Below are positions 3,869 through 32,721 of a DNA stretch of 45,748 nt, in pieces. The stretch's first letter is position 1. Each line of letters starts with the position of its first letter. This stretch comes from Anaerolineae bacterium (GTDB lineage Bacteria > Chloroflexota > Anaerolineae > JAAYZQ01): contig JBFFCR010000001.1 in NCBI GenBank assembly GCA_041559855.1, positions 1-45,748 on the forward strand. The letters run 5' to 3'. The notes under the pieces are model-generated. The model saw only the letters and a list, made by a program, of their open reading frames with translations. It was not told the origin of the DNA and did no database searches. Both the position numbers and the translations under genes were made by a program.

Positions 3869-3939
3869 AGTACCTCCTGTTCTACCTCCTTGGTGGAGAT
3901 TGGCGGTTGGCGGACAGCGACTGGCGCTATCTGCGGCCT

Positions 3940-3968
3940 AGTATACCTCAAGTCTGGTGCGAAGGCAA
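3940..3968 (-). promoter_or_regulatory. Sigma-70-like promoter for the argF-pfk-corrinoid protein unit (TTGCCT-17-TATACT)
   Basis: On the minus strand, TTGCCT lies at the complement of 3963-3968, followed by a 17-nt spacer and TATACT at the complement of 3940-3945. This is about 65 nt upstream of the argF ATG. Confidence 0.45.
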
Positions 3969-4131
3969 TATGGAGGCTGGGACCGGACAGCTCCGATGCG
4001 GGCTGTGGCTGCGGGGTACCATCTTTGCGCTCGCGAGGGGCGCGAGCCCGGGTGTCCAAGAGGTTACGGCTTTGAAGGTCGACGCAGTTTATTGCTGCAA
4101 CACAAGGCGAGACTAGGACGTTGGCGGCCTA

Positions 4132-7100
4132 TCACCTTGCCTGCCACACCACCTTGATCTGAGTTCCAGCGCCCAGCCGACTCTCGATGGCAAGGTTGGC
4201 GCCAATAGCTTGGGCGCGCTCACGGATGATACCCAACCCCAGGCGCTCAGAAGGAATGTGCGCCAGGTCAAAACCACGCCCGTCGTCGCTGATGCAAAGC
4301 CTGAGCTGAGGAGAGCTCGGGCGCTGCGCGCCGTTGTCGAGGCAATGTAGCAGCACCTCCACGCGACTTGCCTGGGCGTGTTTGACGACATTGTTCAACG
4401 CTTCCTGGGCGATGCGATAGAGCGCCACGTGAACCTCTTGCGGCAACGGGCAGAGATCGTCCACGGCGACCGTGACCGGAATCCCTGTCCGGCCCGCGAC
4501 AGCCTCTCCAAGCTGGCGCAAGAGGTCGCGGAGGTTGGCCTCAACCAGGGCCGCCGGACGCAACTCGAGGAGCAGGGTGCGCATTTCTGCCAGAGCGCCT
4601 CGGCTCAGTTGTCTCAGCTCGGCAAGGAGCTGACGTCCTTCCTCCTGGTCGCTCTCCCATAGGTCGGGGATGGCTTCAGCGATGAGACTCGCCGAGAAGA
4701 GGGTCTGGGTGACGGCATCGTGCAACTCGCGGGCCAGGCGTTGGCGCTCCTCCATTACAGCCAATCTTTGGGCCTGTTCGTACAGCCGAGAATTCTCAAC
4801 GGCAATAGCTGCCTGATTGGCCAATGACTGGAGCACGGTCAGATCGCTCTGATCAAAGGCGTCAAGGTGCTCGCTCTCTACGTTTATGACTCCGATGATC
4901 TGGTCTTGAACCTTCATCGGAACTGCAAGCTCGGAGCGCGTTTCCGTGGAAGTCACCTTCACGTAGCGCGGTTCCAGGGCCACATCGGGCACGATGAGCG
5001 GTTCGCCCCTGGCTGCTACCCAACCTGTGATGCTACCTTCGTTCAGAGGCAGCGAAAAGCTCTGGAATCCGTCCCCAAGAGCCCGGCTAGCTCTCGTCTT
5101 GAAGACCAGGGCCGATGTCTCTACGAGGCCGATCTCGACTAGATAGTAGTTGAATGCCCCTTGAATCAGCCGGGCAACCTGCTCTAGGAGCTCCGCCAAG
5201 GTAAGGCTCGACACTACATGGGTACCTACTTCGCTAATCACTCGGAACTGCTCGGCGCGACGCTGCTCTGCATCAAAGAGGCGTGCGTTCTCAATAGCAA
5301 CGGCCGCCTGATCGGCGAGTGACTGCAGGACAACGACATCGCTTGCGTCAAAGGCATTGAGGTGATTGCTCTGCACATCAAGCACGCCGATAATCCTGTC
5401 CTTGACAGCGATGGGCAGCGCCAGTTCCGAGCGTGTCCGACTACCCTCCATTGAGACATAACGTGGCTCCAAGCTCACGTCTGGCACCAGGAGCGGCTCC
5501 CGATGAGCTGCCACCCAGCCCGCGATGCCTTCTTTGCCGACCTTGAGTCGCTCCGGGCTGAACCGGAATCCAGGCTGCTTCCAAAGCTCGCCAGCACCCA
5601 CCTTGTAGACGGCAAAGCCGTCCTCGACCAGGGCGATCGCCACGTGGTCGTAGCCGAAACTGCGCTGAAGGAGCGAGGCAACCTGGTTAAGGACGCTGTC
5701 GACGTCTAGTAGTGATGTGATGCGGCGGCCAACCTGTCCGATGACGCGGAATTGCTCTGCACGGCGCTGTTCGGCCTTGAACAGGCGTGCGTTTTCTATG
5801 GCAGTCGCTGCCTGGTTGGCGAAGGCCACCAGCAGCTTCAGATCACGGCGGTTGAACTGATCGCGGCCCGCCAGCTTGTCGAGGAGTACCAAGCTGCCGA
5901 TGACCTGTCCCTTGGTTACCAAAGGCACTCCGGCGGCGTTTTGGATTGCCCTGCCGAGCGTCAACTCCAGTTCGGTCAGGCCTGGTTGGTTTACCCGATC
6001 GTCGCTCTTCGGATCGAGACAAATGGCCGGCTGGTTGTGACGGGCAATCCAGCCTGACAACCCACTATGCAGCGGCGTACGGGTGCCGATCACGCTCGCC
6101 ATGCTACCTACACAGGCCACTGCCTCGTCCTCACTCCGCTCCCAATCCACCAGGTTGAGTATGCCCCCATCTGCCTGGAAAAGCGCCGTCGCTTGCTCGG
6201 TGATCAGGTGCAGGAGCTCGTCGAGTTGCAGTGTACTGGCGACAGCGGTCGACGTTTCCTGCAGCGCGGTGATCTGGGCTAGGCGTTTCTGGGTGTCGGC
6301 ATATAGGCGGGCATTTTCGATAGCCACAGCCACTTGCCCGGCGATAGAGCTCAGCAGCTCCAGTTCCTGCTGGCCCTGGGACACGCAGCTGCACGTCATG
6401 ACGAATAGAGAGCCCAGGACTCTGCCCCTGGACACGAGCGGGGCGATAGCCAGAGATCGGTAGCCGTGATCTTTCACTGCCATGCGTGTCAAACGTTCGT
6501 CAGCGGCGAGATCGGCCACGAGGAGAGGCTCACCTGTCTGTATCACTCGGCCGGAAAAACCCTCCCCCACGGCAAGGTCATCGATGTTGCCCAGTAGCGA
6601 GTCCTCGATTCCTCGATGCGCCACTAGTCTAAGCATCCCCTGCTGGTTGGGGCTCTCCGGGCTGGCTTGTTGGAGCAGGTAAACGCCGCCTGCCTCACGC
6701 CCCATGACGTCGAGAGTCTTGTCAAGAGCACCATCCAGGATCTGTTCGAGATCCAGGGATGCGCTGACGACTTTGGCAATGGCGTTCAGAGTTGAGAGCT
6801 CCTCCGTCCGACTGGCAACCTGGTGCTCCAACGCCCGAGCCCGCTCCTCGACACTGTGCACGCGGAATCGGTAGGCGGCGACCGCAATGGCGACTACGCA
6901 CAGGGCTGCCAGCCCCCGGAACCACCAGGTTGCCCACACGGGTGGCACCACGGTGATCGACAGGGATGCGCCCGATTCGTTCCACACACCATCGGCGTTA
7001 GCCGCCTTGACGCGAAAGACATAGTCGCGCGGCGGCAAGTTGGTGTACGTGACAAAGCGCCGGTCACCGGCAGCGATCCAGTCATTGTCAAAGCCCTCAA

Positions 7101-9774
7101 GCTTGTAGGCGTACCTGACTCGGCCGGGCATTGCATAGTAGAGCGCGGCAAACTCGAAGGACACGACCTCATCTCGGTAGGACAGCCTGGCCGATTCCGC
7201 AACCTCGACAGAGCGCTGCAATACCGAATCGGTTCCCACCTCGACCGGCTGGTTTGCCACGAGTAATCCGGTGATATACACCGGTGGGGCGTACGGATCG
7301 TCCCAGATCTGGTCGGGGTAGAAGGCGTTGATGCCGTCGACACCCCCGAAGAACATCTCACCGTCGGGTGCAAGGTAGGCTGCCTGCGAGTTGAATTCGT
7401 TGCTCTGCAAACCCTCCAGGTAGGTGTAATTTCTGAAGGTGATGGTCTGCGGGTCGAATCGTGACAAGCCCTGGTTGGTACTCAGCCATAGGTGTACATC
7501 GGTTTCTGCCACTCGTTCTGGCAACACTGCATACACCACGTCATTAGGAAGGCCGTCTTGCTCCCGGTAGTGCGTCCATACACCGGTGGCGGGCTCGAGG
7601 CGTTGCAGGCCATCGCCGTTAGTGCCACACCACACGATGCCGCTTGGGTCCTCATAGACCCAGAGGATCCGTGCATCACTCAGGCTTTCTGGATTATCTG
7701 GGTCGTGGCGGTAGTGGACAAAGGTCTCGGTGGTAGGGTCAAAATGGTCAAGGCCGGTGCCAGTAGCTATCCACAGAGCCCTGTCTCTTCCTGAGAAGAT
7801 GCCCGAGATGACATTGTCGCCCAAGCTGTTGGTGTTGTCTGGGTTGGGTTCGTATTTGTGCACGACGTTACCAGTGCCTGGGTCAAAGCGTGCCAATCCG
7901 ATCCTGTGGAGGCCCAACCACAGATCATCTCCCTCACTGGCTGGGACAATAGCAGAGACGAGCCCAATCTGAGGCGCGACCCGAGGCAGGACGAGCGTGA
8001 ACTCGTAGTTGCTCCAGCCTGCAGGAACCCCTTTGTAGAGGCCCATGCCGGTGCCTACCCAGATCACGCCACCAGGGCCTTCGTGGACGGCGTAGGAGGT
8101 GACGTCGGGCAAGTTAGGATCGATCTCGTAGAAGGAGGATGTGCCGCTAATCCTATCCCAGCGATTCAGGCCAGCTCCAGTGGTAATCCACAAAAGCTGT
8201 GCATGGCCGGCGGCGTCGATCCCTGCCCTTGGAGCATAGATGCGAAAGACCGAGTCATTGCTTCCTCGCTCTTCCGGCGCGGTACCCACTGCGTGGTAAG
8301 GGAACTTTGTCCAAGTAGGATGGTAGAAGCTGATGCCGCCCATGTCGCTGCCCAGCCACATGCCACCCGAGTCATCTTCGTATATCGCGGTGACCGAGTC
8401 GCCACTGAGGGTGCGCGGATTGTCCGGATCGTGTGCATAGTGAGTGAAGCATTCCGTCTGCGGATCGTAGAGGTCGATGCCACCCGCGAAGGTGTGGATC
8501 CAGATAGTGCCCTGACGGTCTTGGTACATGTGCAACACGGCGTTGTGGCTAAGGCCGCAGCGGTCGTCTGGGTCGGCGGAAATGCGAACGATCTCGCCTG
8601 TCTCGGGATCAAGCCGCTCCAGTCCCAGGCGCTCGTAGGTGAGGTCCGGCCTGGCTTCCCCTGAGGCCACCCATAGGTTGCCCTCTTGATCCTCAAGCAG
8701 CGCTCGCACCGTGTTGCCGGAGAATGTGTTGGGATCCTCGGCACTGTAGGGATACGCTGTGAAGTGACCAGTTTCGCGATTGAATTGGTGTAAGCCACCG
8801 AACGTGGTCCCGATCCAGAGGCGCCCTGCTGTGTCCTCGTAGATCCTGGTGGCGTAGGGACTGCGCAGCGACCCGGGGTTGAGCGGTTCCCCGCCATCCG
8901 TGCTCTGGTAGGCATAGCGAACGAAGGATTGGCTATCAGGGTCGTAGCGCACGAGTCCCTCTCCTGTGCCAAACCAGAGGGTGCCGGTGCTATCCTCGTA
9001 TATGGTGTACACCTTGTTGTCGTGCTCGCTCGCTCTCGCTGGGTCGTCGAGGTCATCGCGGAAATAGACAAGGCGATCTGTTTCTGGGTCATACTGGACT
9101 AGGCCAGAACCGTATGTGCCGATCCATAGCCTGCCGACGCTGTCCCCGTAAACAGCACGGATGTTGAGCCCGCCCTGCCTATGGGGATCTTCTATTTTGA
9201 TCGGATAGCGCTGGAAACGATCCATGGCTGGATCGTACCGGTGGAGGACGGCGTCATCGGTGACGAACCAAAGGTTGTCCTCAGGGTCGCGATAGCAGTG
9301 CTGGACCCAGTTCGCGCTGAGGCTATGGGGATCATCGCGATCATGCTCATAGACCCGGAACTGGTACCCATCGTAGCGGTTCAGCCCATCCTGCGTCCCG
9401 AACCACATAAAGCCCCGGCTGTCCTGTGCAATGCAGTTGATCGTGCTTTGAGAGAGGCCATCCTCGATAGTGAGCTGCCGGAATTCTATGCGCCGGGCCG
9501 CGCCTTTGGGGTCTGCTCCTGTATCGAGTAGGGAGGAGACGCTGTGCCCAGCTAGGACAGCGTCGGGATTCGAGGCCGCTCCGATGCCGCCGGTGATGTT
9601 GCCGGAAGTGTCCGATGCGCAGCCTGACATCACGCCCACGACAAGTAGGGAGGCCGTCATCAACCAAGCCAGGCTCTCCTGAACACGCCGGCGCGCTATC
9701 AGTCTGCGACCCACCATTCTTCCCTCGATTGTGGACCTGTGGGTCCGATTCCTACGTCTGTCTGTCTTGATCAT
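4132..9774 (-). CDS. Giant sensor histidine kinase: lipoprotein-like signal, ~15 Reg_prop beta-propeller repeats, Y_Y_Y domain, TM helix, four tandem GAF domains, HisKA_3 (NarL-type) and HATPase_c
   Basis: The N-terminus reads LLVVGVMSGCASD. There are about 15 copies of the [LMIV]W[FILV]GTxxGLxx[YF]D signature, for example MWFGTQDGLNRYDG and LWIGTYGSGLVQYDP. A Y_Y_Y-like region reads VRYAYKLEGFDNDWI...YVFRVKAANADGVW. The TM helix is WWFRGLAALCVVAIAVAAYRF. Four GAF modules each end in A[VI]ENARL[FY]. The H-box is ERQRLARELHDAVTQTLF and the ATPase has ALNNVVKHA...DDGRGF...GLGI. An alternative start is M19 at 9720. Confidence 0.9.
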   Translation of the reverse strand: MIKTDRRRNRTHRSTIEGRMVGRRLIARRRVQESLAWLMTASLLVVGVMSGCASDTSGNITGGIGAASNPDAVLAGHSVSSLLDTGADPKGAARRIEFRQLTIEDGLSQSTINCIAQDSRGFMWFGTQDGLNRYDGYQFRVYEHDRDDPHSLSANWVQHCYRDPEDNLWFVTDDAVLHRYDPAMDRFQRYPIKIEDPHRQGGLNIRAVYGDSVGRLWIGTYGSGLVQYDPETDRLVYFRDDLDDPARASEHDNKVYTIYEDSTGTLWFGTGEGLVRYDPDSQSFVRYAYQSTDGGEPLNPGSLRSPYATRIYEDTAGRLWIGTTFGGLHQFNRETGHFTAYPYSAEDPNTFSGNTVRALLEDQEGNLWVASGEARPDLTYERLGLERLDPETGEIVRISADPDDRCGLSHNAVLHMYQDRQGTIWIHTFAGGIDLYDPQTECFTHYAHDPDNPRTLSGDSVTAIYEDDSGGMWLGSDMGGISFYHPTWTKFPYHAVGTAPEERGSNDSVFRIYAPRAGIDAAGHAQLLWITTGAGLNRWDRISGTSSFYEIDPNLPDVTSYAVHEGPGGVIWVGTGMGLYKGVPAGWSNYEFTLVLPRVAPQIGLVSAIVPASEGDDLWLGLHRIGLARFDPGTGNVVHKYEPNPDNTNSLGDNVISGIFSGRDRALWIATGTGLDHFDPTTETFVHYRHDPDNPESLSDARILWVYEDPSGIVWCGTNGDGLQRLEPATGVWTHYREQDGLPNDVVYAVLPERVAETDVHLWLSTNQGLSRFDPQTITFRNYTYLEGLQSNEFNSQAAYLAPDGEMFFGGVDGINAFYPDQIWDDPYAPPVYITGLLVANQPVEVGTDSVLQRSVEVAESARLSYRDEVVSFEFAALYYAMPGRVRYAYKLEGFDNDWIAAGDRRFVTYTNLPPRDYVFRVKAANADGVWNESGASLSITVVPPVWATWWFRGLAALCVVAIAVAAYRFRVHSVEERARALEHQVASRTEELSTLNAIAKVVSASLDLEQILDGALDKTLDVMGREAGGVYLLQQASPESPNQQGMLRLVAHRGIEDSLLGNIDDLAVGEGFSGRVIQTGEPLLVADLAADERLTRMAVKDHGYRSLAIAPLVSRGRVLGSLFVMTCSCVSQGQQELELLSSIAGQVAVAIENARLYADTQKRLAQITALQETSTAVASTLQLDELLHLITEQATALFQADGGILNLVDWERSEDEAVACVGSMASVIGTRTPLHSGLSGWIARHNQPAICLDPKSDDRVNQPGLTELELTLGRAIQNAAGVPLVTKGQVIGSLVLLDKLAGRDQFNRRDLKLLVAFANQAATAIENARLFKAEQRRAEQFRVIGQVGRRITSLLDVDSVLNQVASLLQRSFGYDHVAIALVEDGFAVYKVGAGELWKQPGFRFSPERLKVGKEGIAGWVAAHREPLLVPDVSLEPRYVSMEGSRTRSELALPIAVKDRIIGVLDVQSNHLNAFDASDVVVLQSLADQAAVAIENARLFDAEQRRAEQFRVISEVGTHVVSSLTLAELLEQVARLIQGAFNYYLVEIGLVETSALVFKTRASRALGDGFQSFSLPLNEGSITGWVAARGEPLIVPDVALEPRYVKVTSTETRSELAVPMKVQDQIIGVINVESEHLDAFDQSDLTVLQSLANQAAIAVENSRLYEQAQRLAVMEERQRLARELHDAVTQTLFSASLIAEAIPDLWESDQEEGRQLLAELRQLSRGALAEMRTLLLELRPAALVEANLRDLLRQLGEAVAGRTGIPVTVAVDDLCPLPQEVHVALYRIAQEALNNVVKHAQASRVEVLLHCLDNGAQRPSSPQLRLCISDDGRGFDLAHIPSERLGLGIIRERAQAIGANLAIESRLGAGTQIKVVWQAR

Positions 9775-17934: not shown

Positions 17935-19467
17935 ATGCAACAGGTACTCTATCTGGAAACGGAAGACGATCTCCCGGCAATCCGTGAGTTGCTTGAAGGG
18001 GCGCAGGCAAAGCGAGTGGTGCTAGTAGTCCCCAAGGGTTCGCGATTGTTTAGGGAGCCACTCAGCCTGCGGATACTGCGTCGATACGCGAGTGACTTGG
18101 CCCTGGATGTGGCCCTCATCACTCGAGACAGCAGGACTCGACAGCTGGCCAAAGAAGAGGGGATTGCTGCTCTATCTTCCATGACGCGGGGACGAAGAGG
18201 TCGCTGGAGAAGCGGCTCGCCGAGGCGCTCGTCGGCTGAGCGAGCTGCGGTGGCACGCGTCGATGGACTGCGTTCTGGACGGGGGGACATAGGATATGGC
18301 GATGCCGTGATCCTCTGGACCGGGCGCGTTCTGGGCATTTTGCTGTTCGCATTCTTGCTGATCGTGGTTGCCGGGATGGCGATCCTGCTCGTGCCGGAAG
18401 CTGAGGTGACGTTGGTGCCATACCGAGAGGTGGTGGAGACGACCTTGGAGGTTACCGCCGATCCGGAGGTAGAGAAACCGAGTCTTGCCTCCTTGACGAT
18501 CCCTGCACGCATCGTAGAGACAGAGGTTGAGCAGACCGGCGAGGTATCAACGGTCAGCAAACGGGATGCACCGGATGCGCCAGCCACGGGTACCATCACT
18601 TTCATAAACCAGACGACTGACCCCCTGCAGATTCTGCCGGGGGCTGTCGTTCGCACTTCGACGGGGACAACGGTGCGTTTCAGGACTGTGACAACGGCCA
18701 CCCTTGAAGCTCTGGTTGGTGCGCGGGCCGATGCGGAGATCGAGGCTCTCGAGCCGGGACCAGTTGGCAATGTGGGCGATGCCACCATCACAGAGGTGGA
18801 AACTTCGGGGCTGCGGGGCAAGGTTCGCGTGATCAACGAGCTCCCAACTCAAGGTGGAGGGGTGAAGCAGGTCGGGGTGGTGACGCGAGCGGACATGGAC
18901 CGGCTCAAGGCTCAGCTATACCAGCAGCTGCAGCAACGGGCCTATGTAGAACTGCAGAATCAGCTCGGCGAGCAGGAGTTCCTGCCGCCGGAATCGATGA
19001 CTACCGAAATCATGGCTGAAGTCTATGATCAGTTTCTTGATGCTGAATCGGATGTGCTGCGCCTGCAGATGCGCATTCTAGCGACTGGGACTGCTGTGGA
19101 TCGGGCCAACGCAAACCTCTTGGCTTATGATGTGGTGAAGGAAAAGATATCGGTCACCTACGAATTGCAGCCGGAGGGTATTACCTACAGCCTGGATGAA
19201 GACAACGTGCGGATGCTCGGACGCAGCGTGATCATCGAGGTGACAGCCTCGGCCCCATTGGTCGTGAATGTTGACCCTGGCGAGGTTCGCTCTGCGGTGT
19301 CGGGTCTGACGGCTGACGAAGCCGTTGATGTGCTGGTCGAGAGATTCGCATTGGATCAGGATGCGCCCCCGGTCGTGGAAGTGAAGCCCGACTGGGTCGA
19401 GCGTTGGGAGTGGCTCGACCGGGTGCCGCTCCTCAAGTTTCGAATCCAGGTCGTGGTGTTGCAGTAG
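17935..19467 (+). CDS. Single-pass membrane protein with a small cytoplasmic N-domain, an Arg/Gly-rich linker and a large extracytoplasmic beta-rich domain (baseplate-J-like by recollection)
   Basis: The 510-aa product has an N-domain MQQVLYLETEDDLPAIRELLEGAQAKRVVLVVPKGSRLFREPLSLRIL..., a linker TRGRRGRWRSGSPRRS and a TM helix VLGILLFAFLLIVVAGMAILLV. The ectodomain contains ATGTITFINQTTDPLQILPGAVVRTSTGTTVRFRT...EPGPVGNVGDATITEV. This resembles proteins I remember being annotated as baseplate J/gp47-like in Chloroflexota and CPR genomes, but the label is unverified. Confidence 0.75.
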   Translation: MQQVLYLETEDDLPAIRELLEGAQAKRVVLVVPKGSRLFREPLSLRILRRYASDLALDVALITRDSRTRQLAKEEGIAALSSMTRGRRGRWRSGSPRRSSAERAAVARVDGLRSGRGDIGYGDAVILWTGRVLGILLFAFLLIVVAGMAILLVPEAEVTLVPYREVVETTLEVTADPEVEKPSLASLTIPARIVETEVEQTGEVSTVSKRDAPDAPATGTITFINQTTDPLQILPGAVVRTSTGTTVRFRTVTTATLEALVGARADAEIEALEPGPVGNVGDATITEVETSGLRGKVRVINELPTQGGGVKQVGVVTRADMDRLKAQLYQQLQQRAYVELQNQLGEQEFLPPESMTTEIMAEVYDQFLDAESDVLRLQMRILATGTAVDRANANLLAYDVVKEKISVTYELQPEGITYSLDEDNVRMLGRSVIIEVTASAPLVVNVDPGEVRSAVSGLTADEAVDVLVERFALDQDAPPVVEVKPDWVERWEWLDRVPLLKFRIQVVVLQ

Positions 19468-24708: not shown

Positions 24709-26031
24709 ATGCCTGACCTGGAAGTCATAGGCGGCGGCTTGGCGGGAAGTGAGGCTGCGTGGCAGGCAGCTGAACGGGGGCTAACCGTGGCTCTCTACGA
24801 GATGCGGCCGCGGCAGACCACGCCCGCTCATGTTGGCGGCTCTTTGGCTGAGCTGGTCTGCTCAAACTCGCTGGGTTCCAACTTGACCGATCGCGCTCCT
24901 GGGTTATTGAAGGAGGAGCTACGCCGCCTGGGCTCGCTGGTGATCGAATGTGCTGATGCGACTGCAGTCCCTGCAGGAGGCGCTCTTGCGGTCGACCGTG
25001 AGGCGTTCGCGCAAATGGTGACCGCGCGTATCGCGGGGCACCCCCGCATCACGGTGCATCGACGGGAAGTGACAACCATCCCTCAGCGGATGGCAGTGGT
25101 TGTGGCCACAGGTCCCCTTACCTCTCCAGCACTTGCTGGCGGAATCGCCCAGTTGACGGGCTCTTCCTACCTTTACTTCTATGATGCGATGGCGCCCATT
25201 GTCGCGGCAGAGTCCATTGATATGTCAGTTGCTTTTCGGGCCAGTCGGTATGGTACTGAAGGGGAGGCAGGTGACTATATCAACTGCCCCATGAGTCAGT
25301 CCGAGTATGAGCAGTTTGTTGACGCGCTGCTAAGCGCCAAGACCATTCCTTTGCGTGACTTTGAGTTGGAGGATCCTCGCTTCTTTGAGGCTTGTCTGCC
25401 TGTTGAAGTGCTGGCTCGCCGGGGACAGAAAGCGCTGGCGTTTGGTCCCTTGAAGCCGGTCGGCTTGACAGACCCGCGCACGGGTCTGCGGCCCTACGCG
25501 GTTGTGCAGCTGCGCCAGGACAACCACTCAGCTACCCTATACAATCTTGTAGGTTTTCAGACCAACCTTGCGTGGGGCGAGCAGGAGCGAGTCTTCCGAC
25601 TTGTTCCGGGACTCGAGCGCGCAGAGTTCGTGCGTTTCGGACAAATGCATCGAAACACCTTCATCAATGCCCCGGCTTTGCTCTTGCCGACAATGCAGTA
25701 TCGGGAGAGAGCAGATCTCTTTTTCGCCGGACAGATCACGGGCACGGAGGGTTACGTGGGATCTGTGGCAGGCGGGTTTGTGGCTGGGGCAAATGCTGCT
25801 CGGCTGGCAATGGAACTTGCTCCAGTCTCTTTTCCCGAAACCACGATGATCGGAGCCCTTTGTAGCTATGTATCGAGAGCGGAGCCACGCGGATTTCAGC
25901 CGATGAAGGCCAACTTTGGCCTGTTACCCCCGCTTGCGCCCCCTGTGCGCAAGAAGCGAGAGCGCTATGCAGCCTATGCCCGGCGCGGCTTGGCTGATCT
26001 GGGCCACTTTATCGCTGCGCAATGCCTCTAG
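24709..26031 (+). CDS. trmFO: Methylenetetrahydrofolate--tRNA-(uracil54-C5)-methyltransferase (FADH2-oxidizing)
   Basis: The sequence [34 protein letters not shown]...[10 protein letters not shown]...[19 protein letters not shown] at 440 aa is a typical TrmFO/Gid layout. Confidence 0.92.
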
Positions 26032-26148
26032 CTCCCTCTCGGCCCTCCGCTACGCGCAACGCTACCAAGATTGGGAGCGCGATACTACCGTCTACTTTTC
26101 CTGTCGGCGTCTCGAGTGAAAGGGGCACGATTTTCCAGGAGATCGGCG

Positions 26149-26805
26149 ATGTCTTATGTGTTTATGAGAGTACTGGAATCAGCCCCGCACCGGTACGAGG
26201 CCGGGATGCGCCTACTGACCTTGGGGCGACTGGCAAAGGTGCGCCAGGATATCGCAGCGCAGGTGAACGCAGGTGACCGGGTCCTTGAAATTGGCTGTGG
26301 CACCGGCACTCTTGCCGTGCTGTTGGCGGAGAAGGGCGCTAGCGTGGTGGCTATTGACATCTACCCGGCGATGGTGCGCGCGACTTCGCGGCTTGTGCGC
26401 GAGGCTGGTTTGGACGAACTGGTCACGGTGGAAGAGATGGGCGCGGTTGACCTGGACACTGCCTTCGAAGACGCATCCTTCGATGTAGTGGTGAGCGCAC
26501 TAGTCTTTAGCGAGCTGTCCCAGGATGAGACAGAGTATACACTGCATGAGTGCTGGCGAATTCTGCGCCCCAGTGGCACTCTACTGATCGCTGACGAGGT
26601 GTTGCCATCGTCCGTGCTGGGCCGATTCGGAGCGCATCTCTTGAGGGTGCCCTTTGCTGTTGCAGCGTTCGTCCTGACTCAGACCACAACTCACCGAGTC
26701 GCTGGGCTGGAGGGGCTGGTCGCCAGGGCTGGTTTCCGAATTGTCAGAGTCGCTGCCTATCTGGCGGGCACGATGAAACTGATCGCTGGGGAGAAGGTAG
26801 CATGA
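26149..26805 (+). CDS. Class I SAM-dependent methyltransferase, partner of the HgcAB-like protein (CpaM-like by recollection)
   Basis: I place the start at MSYVFMRVLESAPHRYE, with AGGAGA 6 nt upstream. The SAM motif I is RVLEIGCGTGTLAVLLAEKGASVVAIDI, motif II is FDVVVSALVFSEL, and a later motif is LRPSGTLLIADE. Its stop overlaps the next ATG (ATGA at 26802-26805). Confidence 0.85.
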   Translation: MSYVFMRVLESAPHRYEAGMRLLTLGRLAKVRQDIAAQVNAGDRVLEIGCGTGTLAVLLAEKGASVVAIDIYPAMVRATSRLVREAGLDELVTVEEMGAVDLDTAFEDASFDVVVSALVFSELSQDETEYTLHECWRILRPSGTLLIADEVLPSSVLGRFGAHLLRVPFAVAAFVLTQTTTHRVAGLEGLVARAGFRIVRVAAYLAGTMKLIAGEKVA

Positions 26806-27935
26806 GTCGCATTGTCGATTGGCTGATGGCGATGACTCAGACGGTGTTTCGGCTGTTCCCGTTTCCGACACGCACTGGGTTACGTACTATCGGTTCGCCG
26901 GATCGTGATGCCCCGGTGCTTGTCACCTGCAATTTCGATCTGACAGTACGCCGTGTGATCAGGGCTCTGCAAGGGCTGGACTGCCATCTGCTGGTTGCTG
27001 ATAGCCGGGGCATCAATGTCTGGTGTGCAGCGGGCGGCGGCAAGCTTACGGCGCACTCGGTCAGCTCGGTTGTCAAGACAACTCGCATCGCCGAGAAAGT
27101 GAATCACCGGACGCTGATCTTACCACAGCTCTCTGCCCCGGGGATCGACATCGCGCGGGTCGAGGAGGAAACAGGTTGGCACTGCAGGTTCGGGCCCACT
27201 TATGCACAGGACATCCCGGCCTATTTGGGAGCGAATCTCTGCAAGACAGATGGCATGCGCCGGGTCACGTTCCCGCTGGCTGCACGGCTGGAGATGGCTG
27301 TGATGTGGGCGGGTTTGCTGTCCGTTCTAGTCGTGATCCCCGTTGCCATCGTCAATTGGCGCCTGCTGCCTGGTGTCCTGGCGATGATCTGGGGTTTCGC
27401 CCTCTTTCTGTTTGCGTTCTTTCGCCAGGTGTTGCGTTTTGCTCCTGGTCCCACCGGTCTGGCCAAGGTTTTGCTCTTGGGTTTGGTCGGGGCAGCAGGC
27501 GTGGTAGCTTACGGACTCGTGCCGGGCAATTGGTCAGCGGGTTCGATCGTGGGCTGGTGTCTGGGAATCGTGGGCGTGGCTCTAGTCCTGGGCTTTGATC
27601 TGGCAGGTACCAGTCCGCTCCTGGCAGGGGAGACGGTGGCCTACTATGCACGGAGATGGCCACAGGTACTCAAGCTCTGGGCTCTGATCGGCTACGACTT
27701 GGAGATGCCATTCACGTTGGCGGTGGATGGGGGGCAGTGCAATGGGTGCGGCGCGTGTGTAGAAGTGTGCCCCAAAGGGGTTTTCGAGCTATGCCGCTCG
27801 GGTGCTATGCTCAGGTCTCGGGTCTTGCACCTGAAGGAGTGCGTGCAGTGCACGGCATGTGTCAAGCAATGTCCTGAGCACGCGATTCTGGCCGAGCCTC
27901 CGATCAAGACATTCGAAGTGCTAGAGGCTGTGTGA
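26802..27935 (+). CDS. Fused HgcA-like corrinoid membrane protein plus HgcB-like 2x[4Fe-4S] ferredoxin (HgcAB-like fusion)
   Basis: The N-terminal ~150 aa read GSPDRDAPVLVTCNFDLTVRRVIRALQGLDCHLLVADSRGINVWCAAGGGKLT...HRTLILPQLSAPGIDIARVEEETGWHCRFGPTYAQDIPAYL...MRRVTFPLAARLE. This is colinear with the HgcA/CFeSP corrinoid domain and includes the NVWCAAG cap-helix Cys motif. Four to five hydrophobic helices follow at about aa 155-285. The C-terminus has CNGCGACVEVCP and CVQCTACVKQCP. Confidence 0.8.
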   Translation: MSRIVDWLMAMTQTVFRLFPFPTRTGLRTIGSPDRDAPVLVTCNFDLTVRRVIRALQGLDCHLLVADSRGINVWCAAGGGKLTAHSVSSVVKTTRIAEKVNHRTLILPQLSAPGIDIARVEEETGWHCRFGPTYAQDIPAYLGANLCKTDGMRRVTFPLAARLEMAVMWAGLLSVLVVIPVAIVNWRLLPGVLAMIWGFALFLFAFFRQVLRFAPGPTGLAKVLLLGLVGAAGVVAYGLVPGNWSAGSIVGWCLGIVGVALVLGFDLAGTSPLLAGETVAYYARRWPQVLKLWALIGYDLEMPFTLAVDGGQCNGCGACVEVCPKGVFELCRSGAMLRSRVLHLKECVQCTACVKQCPEHAILAEPPIKTFEVLEAV

Positions 27936-27990
27936 GGCTTTGCGCCGTCAAGCTTGGTTTCGCGCGCGGCGAAATACCCGAGAGGAACTT

Positions 27991-28956
27991 GTGGGCAAAG
28001 AGAGCGAGTATGTAGTCGAGACGAGCAACCTAACTCGAATCTTCAAGACCGCCAAGGCTGTTGACGGCCTCAGCCTTTCGGTGCGCCGTGGCGAGATCAT
28101 CGGTTTGGTGGGGCCTGACGGGGCGGGCAAGACGACGACCATTCGCATGTTGTGCGCTATCATGGATCCCACTGAAGGCTCGGCCCGTGTGGCAGGACTT
28201 GATACGGTCCGCGAGCCAGAGCGGATCAAGCGGCTCATCGGCTACATGGCGCAACGCTTCAACTTGTACGGCGATCTATCGGTGACAGAGAATCTCGATT
28301 TCTTTGCGGACGTTTTCCAGGTGCGCGGGCGTGAGCGACGCGAGCGTAAGGAACGGCTGCTTCGGTTTGCTCAACTCACCGAATTCGGAGCGCGACGGGC
28401 GGCCCATCTTTCAGGGGGCATGCAGAAGAAGCTGGCGTTAGCGTGTACGCTGATCCACCGGCCTGAGATCATTTTTCTGGATGAGCCCACGACCGGCGTG
28501 GACCCGGTCAGTCGCCGCGAGTTCTGGGACATTCTAGGCGAGCTGCACATGGAGGGCATCACGATCCTGGTTAGCACGCCGTATATGGACGAGGCGGAGC
28601 GTTGTTCCAGGGTCGCGCTGATGTATCAGGGGCGGATCATAGTCTGCGATGAACCGGAGCGGATCAAAGGCATGGTCGCTGGTGATCTGGTGGAGCTGAG
28701 GTCCTCCGATCTACGCCTCGCCGAGCAGATCGTGGCGGGGCTGGAGGGTGTCTTTGAGGTACAGACATACGGCGATCTCTTGCATGTGTTCGTCGATGAT
28801 CTGCCCTCGCGCCATTCATCGCTGGTGGCTGCCCTGGATGCTGCAGGTGTGCAAGTCATCGATCTACGGCAAACCCGACCGCGAATGGAGGAAGCCTTTG
28901 TATCGCTGGTGCGCAGGGAGATTGCGGCTGAGCAATCGGCTGGCGAGAGTGGGTAG
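27991..28956 (+). CDS. ABC transporter ATP-binding protein (ABC-2/DrrA/YbhF-type)
   Basis: Walker A is GLVGPDGAGKTTT, the signature is LSGGMQKKLALA and Walker B is IIFLDEPTTGVD. I prefer a GTG start at 27991 with AGAGGA upstream. The track TTG at 27940 is possible. Confidence 0.9.
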   Translation: MGKESEYVVETSNLTRIFKTAKAVDGLSLSVRRGEIIGLVGPDGAGKTTTIRMLCAIMDPTEGSARVAGLDTVREPERIKRLIGYMAQRFNLYGDLSVTENLDFFADVFQVRGRERRERKERLLRFAQLTEFGARRAAHLSGGMQKKLALACTLIHRPEIIFLDEPTTGVDPVSRREFWDILGELHMEGITILVSTPYMDEAERCSRVALMYQGRIIVCDEPERIKGMVAGDLVELRSSDLRLAEQIVAGLEGVFEVQTYGDLLHVFVDDLPSRHSSLVAALDAAGVQVIDLRQTRPRMEEAFVSLVRREIAAEQSAGESG

Positions 28957-28967
28957 GTGACGGTGAC

Positions 28968-29972
28968 TTGAAGGAAGAGAAGAGGAATCTCGAAGAGCAT
29001 ACTAGAGGCCACCAGGTATCGGTGAGTCAGCCTGCCATTCAGGTGTTAGAACTAACCAAGATCTTTGGCAGTTTCACGGCTGTGGATCGGGTGAGCTTCA
29101 TAGTGAACCGTGGGATGATCTTTGGCTTCCTTGGACCCAACGGCGCGGGAAAGACAACAACCATACGTATGCTGTTGGGATTGCTCAAGCCCACTTCGGG
29201 CGCGGCAAGCGTACTGGGCTTTGACATCGTGAGGCAGACCAATGAGATCAAGGGGCGTATCGGCTACATGTCCCAGCAGTTCAGTCTATACGATGATTTG
29301 ACGGTCGATGAGAATCTGAGCTTCTACGGTCGCACATATGGCGTGCGAAGATGGCGCTTGCAGGAACGGAAGAGATTCGTGCTGGAGACGGCTGGGTTGG
29401 TAGGGCGCGAACGAGAGCTGACACGGAACCTGTCAGGTGGATGGAAGCAGCGGCTGGCTTTGGGTACCGCGATCATCCATGAGCCGGAGATGCTATTCCT
29501 GGATGAGCCAACTGCTGGGATGGATCCTATCTCCCGCCGGGCCTTCTGGGATCTGCTTTATCATCTGGCCGACGCGGGTACGACCATTCTGGTCACCACC
29601 CACTATATGGACGAGGCGGAGCACTGCCAGCGCCTGGCCTTCATCCAGCGTGGGCGCATCGCCGTACAGGGCTCGCCGGCACTCATCAAAGAGACCAAGA
29701 TGCGCGGGGAAGTGTTGGAGATCGACTGCGGGGAACCGGCCACTGCGGTCCGGCTCCTTCGTGAGATGGGGGTCTTTGAGGAAGTGGCACTGTATGGGGC
29801 ACTGGTCCATGCGGTGGCCTTGGATGTAAGGGTGCTAAGGTCGGAGATTGCCGCTCAGCTTCAATCTGCGGGTGTGGAAGTGCGGACGATGGATGTCATT
29901 GCCCCGTCGCTGGAGGATGTGTTCATTTCGAGCGTGCGCGCACCATCAGGTCACAATGGATCAACGGCCTAG
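28968..29972 (+). CDS. ABC transporter ATP-binding protein (ABC-2/DrrA/YbhF-type), paralogue of the preceding gene
   Basis: Walker A is GFLGPNGAGKTTT, the signature is LSGGWKQRLALG and Walker B is MLFLDEPTAGMD. The exact start is uncertain: TTG at 28968 or a downstream GTG. Confidence 0.9.
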   Translation: MKEEKRNLEEHTRGHQVSVSQPAIQVLELTKIFGSFTAVDRVSFIVNRGMIFGFLGPNGAGKTTTIRMLLGLLKPTSGAASVLGFDIVRQTNEIKGRIGYMSQQFSLYDDLTVDENLSFYGRTYGVRRWRLQERKRFVLETAGLVGRERELTRNLSGGWKQRLALGTAIIHEPEMLFLDEPTAGMDPISRRAFWDLLYHLADAGTTILVTTHYMDEAEHCQRLAFIQRGRIAVQGSPALIKETKMRGEVLEIDCGEPATAVRLLREMGVFEEVALYGALVHAVALDVRVLRSEIAAQLQSAGVEVRTMDVIAPSLEDVFISSVRAPSGHNGSTA

Positions 29973-29991
29973 GACTGCGCCGGGGAGACTG

Positions 29992-31359
29992 ATGAAACGA
30001 CGAATTGTCATTGGGGCGGTGCTACTCGTAGTGGCAGCGATTGTTGTAGGGGGCTGGTGGTACGCAAGCCAAAACCCCTCGGCGTGCTCGTGGATTCGGA
30101 GCGAGTTCGAGAAAGCCATCGATGAACTTGGGCTGGGGCCCGAGCAAGAGACTCAGGAGATTGCAGCCTCAGGCTTTATAGAGGCCCAAAAGGTCTCGGT
30201 AAGTACTGATGTCGGAGGGCGCATCGTGGCTCTCTACGGCAGCGAGGGAGAGCAAGTAGGTCAGGGCGACGTGCTCGTGGAGTTGGATAGCTCGTTGCTG
30301 CTCGCTCAGATAGAGATGGCGGAGGCAGATCTTGAACTGGCAGAAGCCACGCTTGCTTTGGTGCAGGCTGGAGTACGGGATGAGACCCTGGCCCATGCAG
30401 AGGCCCAGGTTGCTCAGGCTGAAGCGGCACGAGAAGCGGCCCGAGTCGCGTGGTCGGACGCTCAGGCCATGCTCGCGAATCCCCAGGAACTGGAGCTAGC
30501 TATGACAGCTGCCCGGGCACAGGTAAGTGTGCTGAGTTTCCAAGTGCTACAAGCGCAAGCTGTGGCCAACTCAGCACAGGAGGGTCGCAATCTGTCGGAT
30601 GAGCTTCTCTCGATGCTGGAGAACTCGGCCCCGTTAGTGGCACCTGGTGTGCTGGCCGCCGCGGAGTATGAGCAGGCTTTGGCAACCTACAGGTCATGGG
30701 CCGCCTGGACCGGTGTTGATCAAGCTGAAGTGGCTCTTGAAGGGGCCAAACGGTATCTGGAAGAGCTGAATAGACAGAGAGTGGGTCCTCTTGATCTCGA
30801 GGCCGAGGCTCATGCGGCTGAGGCTCAATATGAGGTGGCAAATGCAGCTGTTGAACTGGCCGTGGCTCATCTGGAGGGTCTCAAGCTGGGCGCTAGCCCC
30901 GAGCAGATTGCGGCTGCTAAAGCGCAGGTTCAAGTGGCTCGCACCGGACTGGCGGCCCTCCAGGTGCAGCTGGCAAAGCTGACGCTGAAAGCACCCATCT
31001 CAGGCTTGGTGCTGGAATGCCCAGTGCATACAGGCGAGCTTGCTACGCCTGGAGTGCCGCTTGTGACCCTAGCCGACCTTGACGAGCTTACCCTTACCAT
31101 CTATGTCGCAGAGGATGAGGTGGGCAGGATCCAGTTGGGCCAGCCGGTCTCGGTTACAGTCGATGCCTACCCCGAACGTGTGTTTTCGGGAGCTGTCACC
31201 TGGATCTCTAACCAGGCAGAGTTCACGCCAAAGAACGTGCAGACACAGGAGGAGCGTGTGAGCATGGTGTTTGGCGTGGAGGTTGGGTTGCCAAATCCTG
31301 ATCATGCACTCAAACCAGGGATGCCGGCTGATGCGATCTTACCCGAGACGGCACGGTAG
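29992..31359 (+). CDS. HlyD/YbhG-family periplasmic adaptor (membrane fusion protein) with a long coiled-coil hairpin
   Basis: I place the start at MKRRIVIGAVLLVVAAIVVGGWWY (TM anchor), with GGGGAGA upstream. A lipoyl-like half reads GGRIVALYGSEGEQVGQGDVLVELD. A coiled coil of about 230 aa is rich in Ala, Glu and Gln. The C-terminal part reads APISGLVLE...FTPKNVQTQEERVSMVFGVEV...LKPGMPADA. Confidence 0.88.
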   Translation: MKRRIVIGAVLLVVAAIVVGGWWYASQNPSACSWIRSEFEKAIDELGLGPEQETQEIAASGFIEAQKVSVSTDVGGRIVALYGSEGEQVGQGDVLVELDSSLLLAQIEMAEADLELAEATLALVQAGVRDETLAHAEAQVAQAEAAREAARVAWSDAQAMLANPQELELAMTAARAQVSVLSFQVLQAQAVANSAQEGRNLSDELLSMLENSAPLVAPGVLAAAEYEQALATYRSWAAWTGVDQAEVALEGAKRYLEELNRQRVGPLDLEAEAHAAEAQYEVANAAVELAVAHLEGLKLGASPEQIAAAKAQVQVARTGLAALQVQLAKLTLKAPISGLVLECPVHTGELATPGVPLVTLADLDELTLTIYVAEDEVGRIQLGQPVSVTVDAYPERVFSGAVTWISNQAEFTPKNVQTQEERVSMVFGVEVGLPNPDHALKPGMPADAILPETAR

Positions 31360-31380
31360 TCAGAATATCGAGGACTATAC

Positions 31381-32721
31381 ATGAAACGTCGTATCATAGT
31401 CCTGCCGTTCCTCCTACTGATCGGCGCCGCAGTAGTTGGGGGTTGGTGGTGGGCTCGGGAATCACCTGAGCAGGCCACGCAGTTCCTGATAGCTGGTGGC
31501 CTTGAAGCCAACCGTGCGCAAGAGTTCATCGCGCTAATCGGTGGTGAGGCAGAAGCTAGCAAAAGTGACGTCTTGCTTGTCTCCGGATCCCTTGAGGGTG
31601 AGGAAGTCTGCATCGTGGCCGAGTTCGGTGGCCTGATCGTGGGCGCTTATGCTGATACAGGGGATGCGGTGGCGTCAGGGCAGGTGCTGGTCAAGATCGA
31701 CGAAAGCCTACTAAGAGCCCAATTGGCCGAGGCCGAGGCTGGTGTGGAGGTCGCCGAAGCGAATCTGGCTACTGTACGGGCTGGCACCCATCCTGCTGAG
31801 ATCATGGCCGCACGAGCAAGCCTGCATCAAGCTGTTGCGGAACGAGCCGCTGCCAGGATCGGTTGGGATGACGTTCAAGCGATTCTTGACAACCCCCAGG
31901 AGATCGAGGCCCAGCTGATCGAGGCGCAGACTGGTGCAGAGTTGGCGGCGGTGCAGATCGAGCAGGCCGAGGCTGAACTTGCACTGGCCATCGTCGAGCG
32001 GGACCAATACCGAGCTCGCGGGACGCTGGAGGAGAAGAAGCTGTATGCCATTTATGACTATCAGGTAGAGGCAGCCCAAGCGGCCTTGGACGGCGCAAAG
32101 GAGAACCTTGCAGGGGCAAGGAAGACCGCGGCGGCACTAGAGGCATTGCTGGCGAATCCACTGGCCCTCGTCAGCCAGGTTCACGAAGCGGAAGCCTTGT
32201 TCAACATTGCCGCTGCACATGTGGGGGTTGTAGCAGCGAGACTGCACGAATTAAGAGCAGAGGCATCGCCCGAGGCGGTGGCAGTGGCCGAAGCGCAGGT
32301 CTCACAGGCTCGAGCATCTGCAGCGCTGCTCCATGCGCAGATCGAGAAGATGACATTGCGTTCGCCGGTCGATGGTGTGGTGACCAGTTGCTCTGTGCAT
32401 CCTGGTGAAGCGGCTGTCTCTGGAATGACTCTATGCACCGTTGCGGTGCTAGACGAGGTAACCCTTACGATCTATATTTCCGAAGACGAGTTGAATCGCG
32501 TGTATTTGGGTCAGCGAGTCGAGGTTCAGGTGGACTCGTTCCCCGACCGGGCATTTTGGGGGACAATCTCCTATATCTCGCAGCAGGCAGAATTCACACC
32601 GAGGAACGTCCAGACGCGAGAGGCGAGGGTAAATATAGTGTTTGCAGTAAAGGTTCGCTTACCCAATCGAGAGCATCTCCTGAAGCCAGGGATGCCCGCG
32701 GATGCGGTCATTCGCCACTAG
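31381..32721 (+). CDS. HlyD/YbhG-family periplasmic adaptor, tandem paralogue
   Basis: The sequence MKRRIIVLPFLLLIGAAVVGGWWW...GQVLVKIDESLL...SPVDGVVTS...FTPRNVQTREARVNIVFAVKV...LKPGMPADA has the same architecture as the preceding gene. Confidence 0.88.
   Translation: MKRRIIVLPFLLLIGAAVVGGWWWARESPEQATQFLIAGGLEANRAQEFIALIGGEAEASKSDVLLVSGSLEGEEVCIVAEFGGLIVGAYADTGDAVASGQVLVKIDESLLRAQLAEAEAGVEVAEANLATVRAGTHPAEIMAARASLHQAVAERAAARIGWDDVQAILDNPQEIEAQLIEAQTGAELAAVQIEQAEAELALAIVERDQYRARGTLEEKKLYAIYDYQVEAAQAALDGAKENLAGARKTAAALEALLANPLALVSQVHEAEALFNIAAAHVGVVAARLHELRAEASPEAVAVAEAQVSQARASAALLHAQIEKMTLRSPVDGVVTSCSVHPGEAAVSGMTLCTVAVLDEVTLTIYISEDELNRVYLGQRVEVQVDSFPDRAFWGTISYISQQAEFTPRNVQTREARVNIVFAVKVRLPNREHLLKPGMPADAVIRH

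Follow-up and report, generated by a model that had tools for sequence, protein, structure and literature searches.

What physiological purpose the HgcAB lineage serves has long been a question in mercury biogeochemistry, and the fused sister family of HgcAB is normally set aside as a non-methylating paralogue. With purified true HgcAB it has been shown that S-adenosylmethionine (SAM), and not methyl-tetrahydrofolate, methylates Co(I) to methyl-Co(III), with a Kd of 33 µM and a k of 0.15 s-1 (Zheng et al. 2024, PMC11588087). In the purified complex the conserved HgcA cysteine is the thiolate lower ligand of methyl-Co(III) and the HgcB clusters form an electron relay; the HgcB Cys73 equivalent and C-terminal Cys pair are needed for mercury methylation (PMC11588087). 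No methylmercury was made by P. furiosus (fused gene AAL80853) and M. methylutens, which carry the fused family (PMC4646819, PMC5893877, PMC10087281). Here we analyze a member of this family and its partner, the SAM-dependent methyltransferase CpaM, which are encoded by two overlapping genes in a 45,748-nt stretch of DNA from an Anaerolineae bacterium (assembly GCA_041559855.1, contig JBFFCR010000001.1, positions 1 to 45,748; "the window"). The identities of the two genes, judged from their sequence matches, are essentially certain. We propose that their products may work together as a methyl-transfer enzyme in which CpaM would load a protein-bound cobalt.

The window pair resembles true HgcAB (NF040863/NF040864; Pseudodesulfovibrio mercurii ND132) in having a corrinoid domain of the type found in the corrinoid iron-sulfur protein (CFeSP), a G-I-N-V-W-C cap helix, a membrane domain and a 2x[4Fe-4S] ferredoxin partner, and in both families an ArsR-type regulator is sometimes adjacent. 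It differs in that the ferredoxin is fused, in having four transmembrane (TM) helices instead of the five in HgcA, in its motif (AAGGG(K/H/Y/F) versus AAGK), in lacking the HgcB C-terminal Cys pair and a Cys73 equivalent, and in its obligatory CpaM partner, which true hgcAB loci do not have. SAM is the experimentally shown methyl source in true HgcAB (PMC11588087), whereas its use by the window pair is proposed. The CFeSP large subunit (AcsC/CdhE; structures 2h9a, 4djd and 2ycl) has the same B12-binding Rossmann domain, at about 2.1 Å over about 133 residues, and in CFeSP a separate methyltransferase (MeTr) loads the Co(I) methyl and an Fe-S cluster serves for re-reduction, much as we envisage here. 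However, CFeSP is soluble and heterodimeric, has N-terminal [4Fe-4S] and TIM-barrel domains that are absent in the fusion protein, has Thr at the position of the fusion protein's Cys75 and so has no protein ligand to cobalt, and takes its methyl from methyl-tetrahydrofolate through a TIM-barrel MeTr, where the window pair is proposed to use SAM and a Rossmann methyltransferase. Methionine synthase reactivation and class B radical-SAM enzymes (TsrM) do form methyl-Co(III) from Co(I) with SAM as the CH3+ donor, and need a low-potential electron donor, but the activation domain of methionine synthase (MetH) and the radical-SAM barrel are other SAM-binding folds, with no Cys lower ligand, membrane domain or class I Rossmann methyltransferase (PMC11588087).

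By NCBIfam search, the 377-aa fusion protein matches model NF043039, "HgcAB-like fusion protein", with 385 bits (cutoff 285, E = 4.5e-115) over profile positions 3-349 of 350. Three other identities were rejected. The score against true HgcA (NF040863) is 162 bits, below the cutoff of 275, and the protein has an NVWCAAGG motif, four TM peaks, a fused ferredoxin and a position outside the HgcA split of the tree described below. The ferredoxin domain reaches 46.6 bits against true HgcB (NF040864, cutoff 99) and lacks both the C-terminal Cys pair and a counterpart of Cys73. Nor is the protein a CFeSP large subunit: it reaches only 94.5 bits against the CFeSP gamma/acetyl-CoA decarbonylase-synthase model NF003195 (cutoff 306), of which only positions 321-446 of 450 are matched, corresponding to the C-terminal B12 domain. 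Likewise, only the C-terminal (B12-binding) part of Pfam CdhD is matched (profile 265-386 of 387, aa 20-141, E = 1.2e-19), and Fer4, Fer4_9 and Fer4_7 match at aa 308-362. Together with hydropathy and an AlphaFold2 (AF2) model, the Pfam matches delimit a corrinoid domain, a TM domain and a two-cluster ferredoxin domain in a single polypeptide. The exact protein (P0001) is already on record at NCBI.

The only solved structures found by a PDB sequence search were CFeSP large subunits (2h9a/4djd, E ~1e-12, aa 20-147), whose N-terminal [4Fe-4S] and TIM-barrel parts are unmatched and in which the Thr of "SVLTAWAAGK" aligns with Cys75. The AF2 model (63 homologues, pLDDT 76.7, pTM 0.75) has a pLDDT of about 90 in the corrinoid domain and 50 at the cap-helix motif, as expected for a cofactor-contacting segment modelled without its cofactor. 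When this model was compared to the PDB with Foldseek, the first match was the HgcAB model 9a0b (9a0b_A; E = 3e-11, 297 columns), followed by the CFeSP large subunits 4djd_C and 2h9a_A (root-mean-square deviation 2.1-2.2 Å over about 133 columns). The profile, sequence and fold searches therefore all place the N-terminal domain in the HgcA/CFeSP family, as an initial annotation of the window, made from the sequence alone, had suggested. The peptides it had matched to HgcA (PVLVTCNFDLTVRRV, LLVADSRGINVWCAAGGGK, LILPQLSAPGI, FGPTYAQDIPAYL and MRRVTFPL) are all in the translation, and the cap-helix motif N-V-W-C-A-A-G that it had named is there in the form NVWC75AAGGGK. The two CxxCxxCxxxCP cluster motifs that it had seen in the same polypeptide are C313/316/319/323-P324 and C347/350/353/357-P358. 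As it had also stated, there is no Cys past the second cluster (the C-terminus is ...AEPPIKTFEVLEAV); one further Cys between the two motifs, C332 ("FELC"), is not conserved. Finally, the family names that it had put forward, "HgcAB-like fusion protein" and CpaM, are those of NF043039 and NF043040, both matched above their curated cutoffs.

There are more than 2,000 relatives of the fusion protein in public data, some named "HgcAB-like fusion protein [Anaerolineae bacterium]", with 1,859 matches at E <= 1e-3 among 50%-identity representatives. In an alignment of 39 representatives (27-53% identity), residues G70, N72, W74, C75, G131 and P132 are invariant, as are C313, C319, C323, P324, C347, C350, C353 and C357 of the ferredoxin domain. 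The window protein has all four Cys of the first cluster motif, of which C316 is not invariant because a subgroup has a three-Cys version. Cys75, on whose conservation the initial annotation had made its case depend, is also invariant in 76 locus-derived sequences. The 39 representatives have no further conserved Cys beyond Cys75 and the Fe-S ligands, so the mercury-handling cysteines of HgcB are without counterpart in the fusion family. Around Cys75 the family reads GINVWCAAxGG[H/Y/F][L/F]T, versus GINVWCAAGK.TF in true HgcA. In a neighbor-joining tree of the corrinoid domain (135-column alignment, with the position of the CFeSP outgroup left unresolved), 298 of 300 bootstraps set the true-HgcA loci apart as a split of their own, with the window protein outside it. 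This gives the placement relative to true HgcA that the initial annotation had called for, and it fits the two clades described by Lin et al. (bioRxiv 10.1101/2022.11.21.517362).

Two variant forms of the fusion protein were seen among the representatives. In P0137, P0145, P0153, P0158, P0172, P0173 and P0220 the first Fe-S motif contains just three Cys (C-x5-6-C-x3-C-P), which suggests a site-differentiated or 3Fe cluster; this subgroup often has a longer conserved C-terminal tail, and a separate 83-aa ferredoxin at locus L052 (6860-7111) has the same three-Cys first motif. Others (P0171, P0188, P0196, P0225, P0193, P0217 and more) have an N-terminal extension of about 140 aa that is strongly hydrophobic, with 3-4 predicted TM helices, and has no Pfam or NCBIfam match and no similarity to CpaM. 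The possibility that this extension is a degenerate CpaM was rejected because of its hydrophobicity and extra TM helices.

For the membrane domain, the initial annotation had proposed four to five TM helices, of which the figure of four holds and five does not. The hydropathy profile has four peaks, at about residues 175, 197, 232 and 258, in agreement with AF2 helices at 159-205, 207-213, 220-239 and 246-269, and the distribution of Lys and Arg (positive-inside) favours an N-in/C-in topology. In the locus survey described below, most family loci (56 of 75) have four TM peaks, and true HgcA loci have five (5 of 5). Four helices would bring the chain back to the cytoplasm and so make fusion to a ferredoxin domain possible; the corrinoid and ferredoxin domains and CpaM are then all predicted to be on the cytoplasmic side.

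CpaM matches NF043040, "corrinoid protein-associated methyltransferase CpaM" (classed by NCBIfam as a hypothetical equivalog), over the full profile (positions 1-216 of 216; 268.9 bits, cutoff 180, E = 2.6e-80) and also matches Pfam Methyltransf_25/11; the string VLEIGCGTGTL, by which the initial annotation had recognized a methyltransferase directly upstream of the fusion gene, is in its translation. After its own family, the best model matches are UbiE/MenG and ArsM-type, at 55-65 bits and far below their curated cutoffs. Conserved residues in CpaM are M6, L9, E10, Y16, G19, GCGTG49-53, D70, S121-E122, G143, D149-E150, R166-x-P168, Q178 and T181, and the family has a conserved N-terminal motif (M-x-x-L-E-x-x-P-x-R-Y-D-x-G) and a conserved hydrophobic helix insertion (R-x-P-L...T-Y-x-L-T-Q-T-T-T, residues 156-181). 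No Cys is conserved in the family outside the motif I GCGTG, so CpaM is without an ArsM-type As(III) site. Its fold and SAM motifs are those of the UbiE/MenG/Coq5 and ArsM-type methyltransferases, but unlike them it has its own N-terminal motif and L-T-Q-T-T-T insertion, lacks the ArsM Cys triad, and adjoins or is fused to a corrinoid protein in the sampled loci (with an insert of 1.2-1.8 kb in two). AF2 models CpaM as a Rossmann methyltransferase in which residues 156-177 make up a long helix (pLDDT 87, pTM 0.85). The N-terminal motif, the most conserved part of that region, has a pLDDT of 41, the low value to be expected if this segment becomes ordered on a partner. The phrase "corrinoid protein-associated methyltransferase" and the NF accession numbers were not found in the literature searched.

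To see how the two genes are arranged elsewhere, we surveyed one genome per species (GTDB) with the pattern GINVWCAA, taken from 17 sequences that share it; the pattern also retrieves true HgcA, which served as a control. It turned up in at least 599 species, from which we retained the 80 best loci. With the window these make 81 loci, which were analysed with purpose-built hidden Markov models; 75 belong to the fusion family and 6 to the true-HgcA clade. The retained loci are from Chloroflexota, Myxococcota, Desulfobacterota, Acidobacteriota, Gemmatimonadota, Actinomycetota, Planctomycetota, Verrucomicrobiota, Gammaproteobacteria, Heimdallarchaeota, Bathyarchaeota, Thermoplasmata and others, and the 75 family loci span at least 12 phyla. 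CpaM is upstream on the same strand in 74 of the 75 family loci and absent from all 6 loci of the true-HgcA clade. It is an adjacent separate gene, as in the window, in 55 loci (CpaM / A~B, where A and B are the HgcA-like and ferredoxin parts and ~ is fusion), where the first aligned fusion residue lies -21 to +33 nt from the CpaM stop, or 113 nt in one case. In 15 loci CpaM and the HgcA-like part are in one ORF, and 12-15 loci have the arrangement CpaM~A / B with a separate ferredoxin–for example, L052 has a 541-aa CpaM~HgcA-like ORF that keeps a fifth hydrophobic helix, and an 83-aa ferredoxin ORF 5 nt further on. Triple fusions (CpaM~A~B) are present at L010 and L062 (629 aa), and in the representative library P0129, P0133, P0147, P0148, P0159 and P0207 (582-644 aa) are triple fusions that pass both curated cutoffs. 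The fusion linkers are only about 21 aa long. As for the less regular loci, an insert of 1.2-1.8 kb separates CpaM from the corrinoid gene in two, CpaM is truncated by the contig end in one, and at L043 it overlaps the HgcA-like ORF in a different frame, in what looks like a frameshift within a fused gene.

The association is reciprocal. A profile search with CpaM found 2,624 proteins, and a gene with CdhD and Fer4 domains comes next in 7 of 7 long contigs examined, at positions from a 4-nt overlap to 15 nt downstream; one of these contigs is from the cultured archaeon Thermococcus atlanticus JCM16138. The initial annotation had named this adjacency as something that related genomes should share, and had proposed a neighbourhood survey; seen from either gene, the adjacency is kept. 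Neighbourhood clustering of the 75 loci gave no third conserved gene near the module: the neighbours include TetR (15 loci), ABC ATPase (9), ArsR-type (5-6) and HMA ATPase (4) genes.

Two other loci in the survey have unusual structures. L045 (Thermoanaerobaculales) has two tandem CpaM + HgcAB-like pairs (616-2291 and 3864-5572), with an ArsR-type gene directly upstream of the first. L080 (5980-6975, Verrucomicrobiota) groups with true HgcA (298/300 bootstraps) and has no CpaM, and its ferredoxin part is in the same stop-to-stop frame, with only two hydrophobic peaks detected; this is a true HgcAB in fused form or else an artefact of the assembly.

We propose that the overlapping genes encode a self-contained, membrane-anchored, three-module methyl-transfer enzyme, the CpaM / HgcAB-like family. 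By homology to HgcB, the C-terminal 2x[4Fe-4S] ferredoxin domain would take low-potential electrons and reduce the cobalt to Co(I). CpaM would then bind SAM and hand the methyl of this cofactor to Co(I), yielding methyl-Co(III) and S-adenosylhomocysteine, with Cys75 as the lower axial thiolate ligand. For this step we draw on the fusion and adjacency of the genes and on the SAM dependence of true HgcAB: a SAM-binding module that delivers methyl to Co(I) is the simplest reading of the near-obligatory pairing and repeated fusion, and homology to true HgcAB suggests that the window protein has the same cobalt cycle. We infer the role of Cys75 from the invariant G-x-N-x-W-C and the precedent of the homologous HgcA Cys. 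Lastly, the Cys-ligated methyl-Co(III) could pass a carbanion or radical methyl to some acceptor at the membrane's cytoplasmic face. This acceptor is probably something other than mercury, because the mercury-handling cysteines of HgcB are absent and cultured fusion carriers make no methylmercury. We put the chances of this mechanism, chiefly the delivery of methyl from SAM to Co(I) by CpaM, at about even. Somewhat more tentatively, CpaM may be the first class I (Rossmann) SAM methyltransferase that acts on protein-bound corrinoid cobalt, and with its Cys-ligated, membrane-anchored partner it may make up a widespread polarity-inverting methylase, which by way of Co(I) turns the electrophilic methyl of SAM into one of carbanion or radical type, for a non-mercury acceptor at the membrane.

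Several points weigh against the proposal that CpaM methylates cobalt. Fusion and adjacency indicate functional coupling and are not evidence of the reaction that CpaM carries out, and the literature contains no experiment on any member of the fusion family and, as far as we found, no biochemical data on CpaM catalysis. The fold neighbours of CpaM are ordinary small-molecule methyltransferases (among them TleD, MitM, RebM, Coq5, UbiG and phosphatidylethanolamine N-methyltransferase), and no class I methyltransferase acting on a protein-bound corrinoid is among its PDB matches. One family locus, L039, has no CpaM within 13 kb, and is the only such case. The TM domain is poorly conserved (among the 39 representatives only R162 and G269 are nearly invariant) and therefore gives no clue to a substrate site. 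Moreover, purified true HgcAB reacts with SAM without a separate methyltransferase (PMC11588087), so the HgcA-like domain might do likewise and CpaM could act elsewhere. The two proteins would then be consecutive enzymes, the HgcA-like domain taking the SAM methyl directly and CpaM methylating the same substrate or product at another position, for example in a lipid-soluble or quinone-like compound at the membrane. Such an arrangement would suit both the models that match CpaM next best (UbiE/MenG and ArsM-type) and its fold neighbours, which include Coq5, UbiG, the phosphatidylethanolamine enzyme and natural-product methyltransferases; the helix insertion at 156-181 sits where a substrate lid usually forms, TetR-type regulators adjoin the module in 15 of the 75 loci, and fusion is also common between consecutive enzymes of a pathway. 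However, the pair is an isolated two-gene module that recurs in very different neighbourhoods without other conserved pathway genes, the sister family, true HgcAB, is entirely without CpaM, and no residues of CpaM stood out as candidates for substrate binding (thiols, or a His/Tyr base). We consider it unlikely, although a serious contender, that the two proteins are consecutive enzymes.

The nature of the acceptor is a separate issue. A metal(loid) other than mercury (As, Sb, Sn, Pb, Te or Se) would make the system a detoxification or volatilisation device; this bears only on the final transfer and is compatible with the relay from SAM through cobalt. ArsR/SmtB-type regulators with Cys-rich motifs resembling metal sites adjoin the module in L025, L039, L045, L046 and T. 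atlanticus, HMA-type P1B ATPases are near it in L022, L063, L082 and L087, and in a KSB1 genome it is flanked by genes for an ArsP permease, a second methyltransferase and AhpD/CMD proteins. ArsR and ars genes are linked to true hgcAB as well (PMC7438021; bioRxiv 10.1101/2022.10.17.512643), and Cys-on methyl-corrinoids have been proposed to give a carbanion or radical methyl, which suits electrophilic metals (PMC11588087). Metal-related neighbours are, though, found in only about 10% of loci, a figure that has no background rate, neither protein has a conserved soft-metal Cys pair besides Cys75 and the Fe-S ligands, and the window module lies amid housekeeping genes (TrmFO, pyrimidine-nucleoside phosphorylase, alanyl-tRNA synthetase and phosphofructokinase). 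We regard a metal(loid) acceptor as a lead, but an improbable one. We give least credence, very little indeed, to the idea that the protein does methylate mercury, as a fused HgcAB whose activity escaped notice when cultures were tested. It has the cap-helix Cys, a TM domain and a two-cluster ferredoxin, and the failure of P. furiosus to make methylmercury need not mean that its enzyme is incapable (Podar et al., PMC4646819), but the scores are below the curated cutoffs for both HgcA (162 vs 275 bits) and HgcB (46.6 vs 99), the equivalents of HgcB Cys73 and the C-terminal CysCys are absent and not conserved in the family, the true-HgcA loci split apart in 298 of 300 bootstraps, and neither of two cultured fusion carriers made methylmercury (PMC4646819, PMC5893877). 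The window motif NVWCAAGG also fails the Hg-MATE criterion for true HgcA, N(V/I)WC(A/S)(A/G/S)GK (PMC10087281). The same papers bear out the statement in the initial annotation that fused homologues exist and that tested hosts do not methylate mercury (PMC4646819, PMC5893877, PMC10087281).

The gene order at two archaeal or candidate-phylum loci is recorded here separately. In T. atlanticus JCM16138 (L082, 3213-8424) there is a metal-resistance-like row of ArsR-type HTH_5, HMA P-type ATPase, 67-aa ORF, CpaM, HgcAB-like and DUF302 genes, in which the CpaM/HgcAB-like pair spans 6001-7807. At the locus from candidate division KSB1 (L083, 2205-7165), two AhpD/CMD-domain genes and a GAF protein gene are upstream, and the second methyltransferase, which is UbiE-like, and the permease, ArsP_1, are downstream on the opposite strand.

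The window locus is a typical member of a widespread, curated and named two-gene module, and is not in itself novel. What the analysis adds to the literature found is the near-universal, reciprocal linkage to CpaM, the three fusion permutations, the logic of four versus five TM helices, the absence of conserved thiols besides Cys75, and a cultured host. The fusion family is broad (at least 12 phyla, with Asgard archaea and cultured Thermococcales among its hosts) and is almost always tied to a dedicated SAM methyltransferase. Now that SAM is known as the HgcAB donor (2024), the CpaM/HgcAB-like pair offers a defined mercury-free system for the study of SAM-to-cobalt transfer, Cys-on corrinoid chemistry and the native acceptor, and the cultured Thermococcales are organisms in which its function is testable. 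If CpaM does methylate corrinoid cobalt, the family would be a natural and tractable model for the origin and original role of the mercury methylase.

The features of the locus are listed in Table 1. The start of cpaM is from an independent gene call (NCBI record GCA_041562475.1, contig JBFEXT010000001.1), which places it at ATG 26149 for a 218-aa product, and an ATG was read directly in the DNA at 26149-26151; in the ORF list the longest form of this upstream ORF starts at TTG 26071. The ATGA overlap between the two genes that the initial annotation had reported is present in the DNA, and these 4 nt might reflect translational coupling of cpaM and the fusion gene.

Table 1. Features of the cpaM/HgcAB-like locus, in window coordinates.
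Feature	Position	Strand	Basis and remarks
Shine-Dalgarno-like AGGAG	26137..26141	+	7 nt 5' of cpaM ATG; consensus resemblance only
cpaM, 218-aa class I SAM-dependent methyltransferase	26149..26805	+	NF043040, Pfam Methyltransf_25/11, gene call
ATGA overlap, fusion-gene start / cpaM stop	26802..26805	+	ATG 26802-26804 over TGA 26803-26805
HgcAB-like fusion gene, 377 aa, second gene of the pair	26802..27935	+	NF043039; ORF list
Corrinoid-binding (CFeSP/HgcA-type Rossmann) domain, ~aa 20-155	26859..27266	+	Pfam CdhD, CFeSP PDB matches, Foldseek
Cap-helix motif G70-I-N-V-W-C75-A-A-G-G-G-K81	27009..27044	+	Cys75 codon TGT 27024-27026
Membrane domain, four predicted TM helices, ~aa 160-270	27279..27611	+	Hydropathy, AF2; conserved D266-x-x-G269-T-S-P at end
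HgcB-like 2x[4Fe-4S] ferredoxin domain, aa 305-366	27714..27899	+	Cluster motifs 27738-27773 and 27840-27875; Fer4, Fer4_9, Fer4_7
Two DrrA-type ABC ATPase and two HlyD-family adaptor genes	27991..32721	+	NCBIfam/Pfam; context only, module membership not established

The ABC ATPase and HlyD genes are on the same strand as the module and begin 55 nt past the fusion gene. A scan of 25900-28200 found no terminator-like site between them and the fusion gene, and no ABC permease gene is visible in the window before the strand switch at about 33077. They were not counted as part of the system because only 9 of the 75 family loci have ABC ATPases in the module's vicinity. The two terminator-like sites in the scanned interval are both within coding sequence, at chance level, and a promoter scan of the same interval found no sigma-70-like promoter. 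Rfam searches found no riboswitch or other RNA family in the window, and no RNA family upstream of the module in 12 related loci; a tblastn search of a plasmid collection gave no match. The window neighbours are housekeeping genes (those named above, with RuvX, YceG and ornithine transcarbamylase) and sensor kinases. The locus itself is a chromosomal copy of the ordinary kind in an Anaerolineae-type metagenome-assembled genome, and nothing unusual is implied.

Elsewhere in the window, a 510-aa ORF (17935-19467, + strand) lies between an FtsA-like gene and ruvX; it has no Pfam match at E <= 1e-5, and the precomputed annotation gives only a weak Baseplate_J. One of the sensor kinases is a histidine kinase of 1,879 aa (4132-9774, - strand) with Reg_prop repeats, Y_Y_Y, at least four GAF domains, HisKA_3 and HATPase_c. 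In another genome of the survey, a c-di-AMP riboswitch (L004, 4208-4342, + strand; 99.6 bits) is located about 170 nt downstream of a Dehalococcoidia fusion gene, and presumably controls the next gene.

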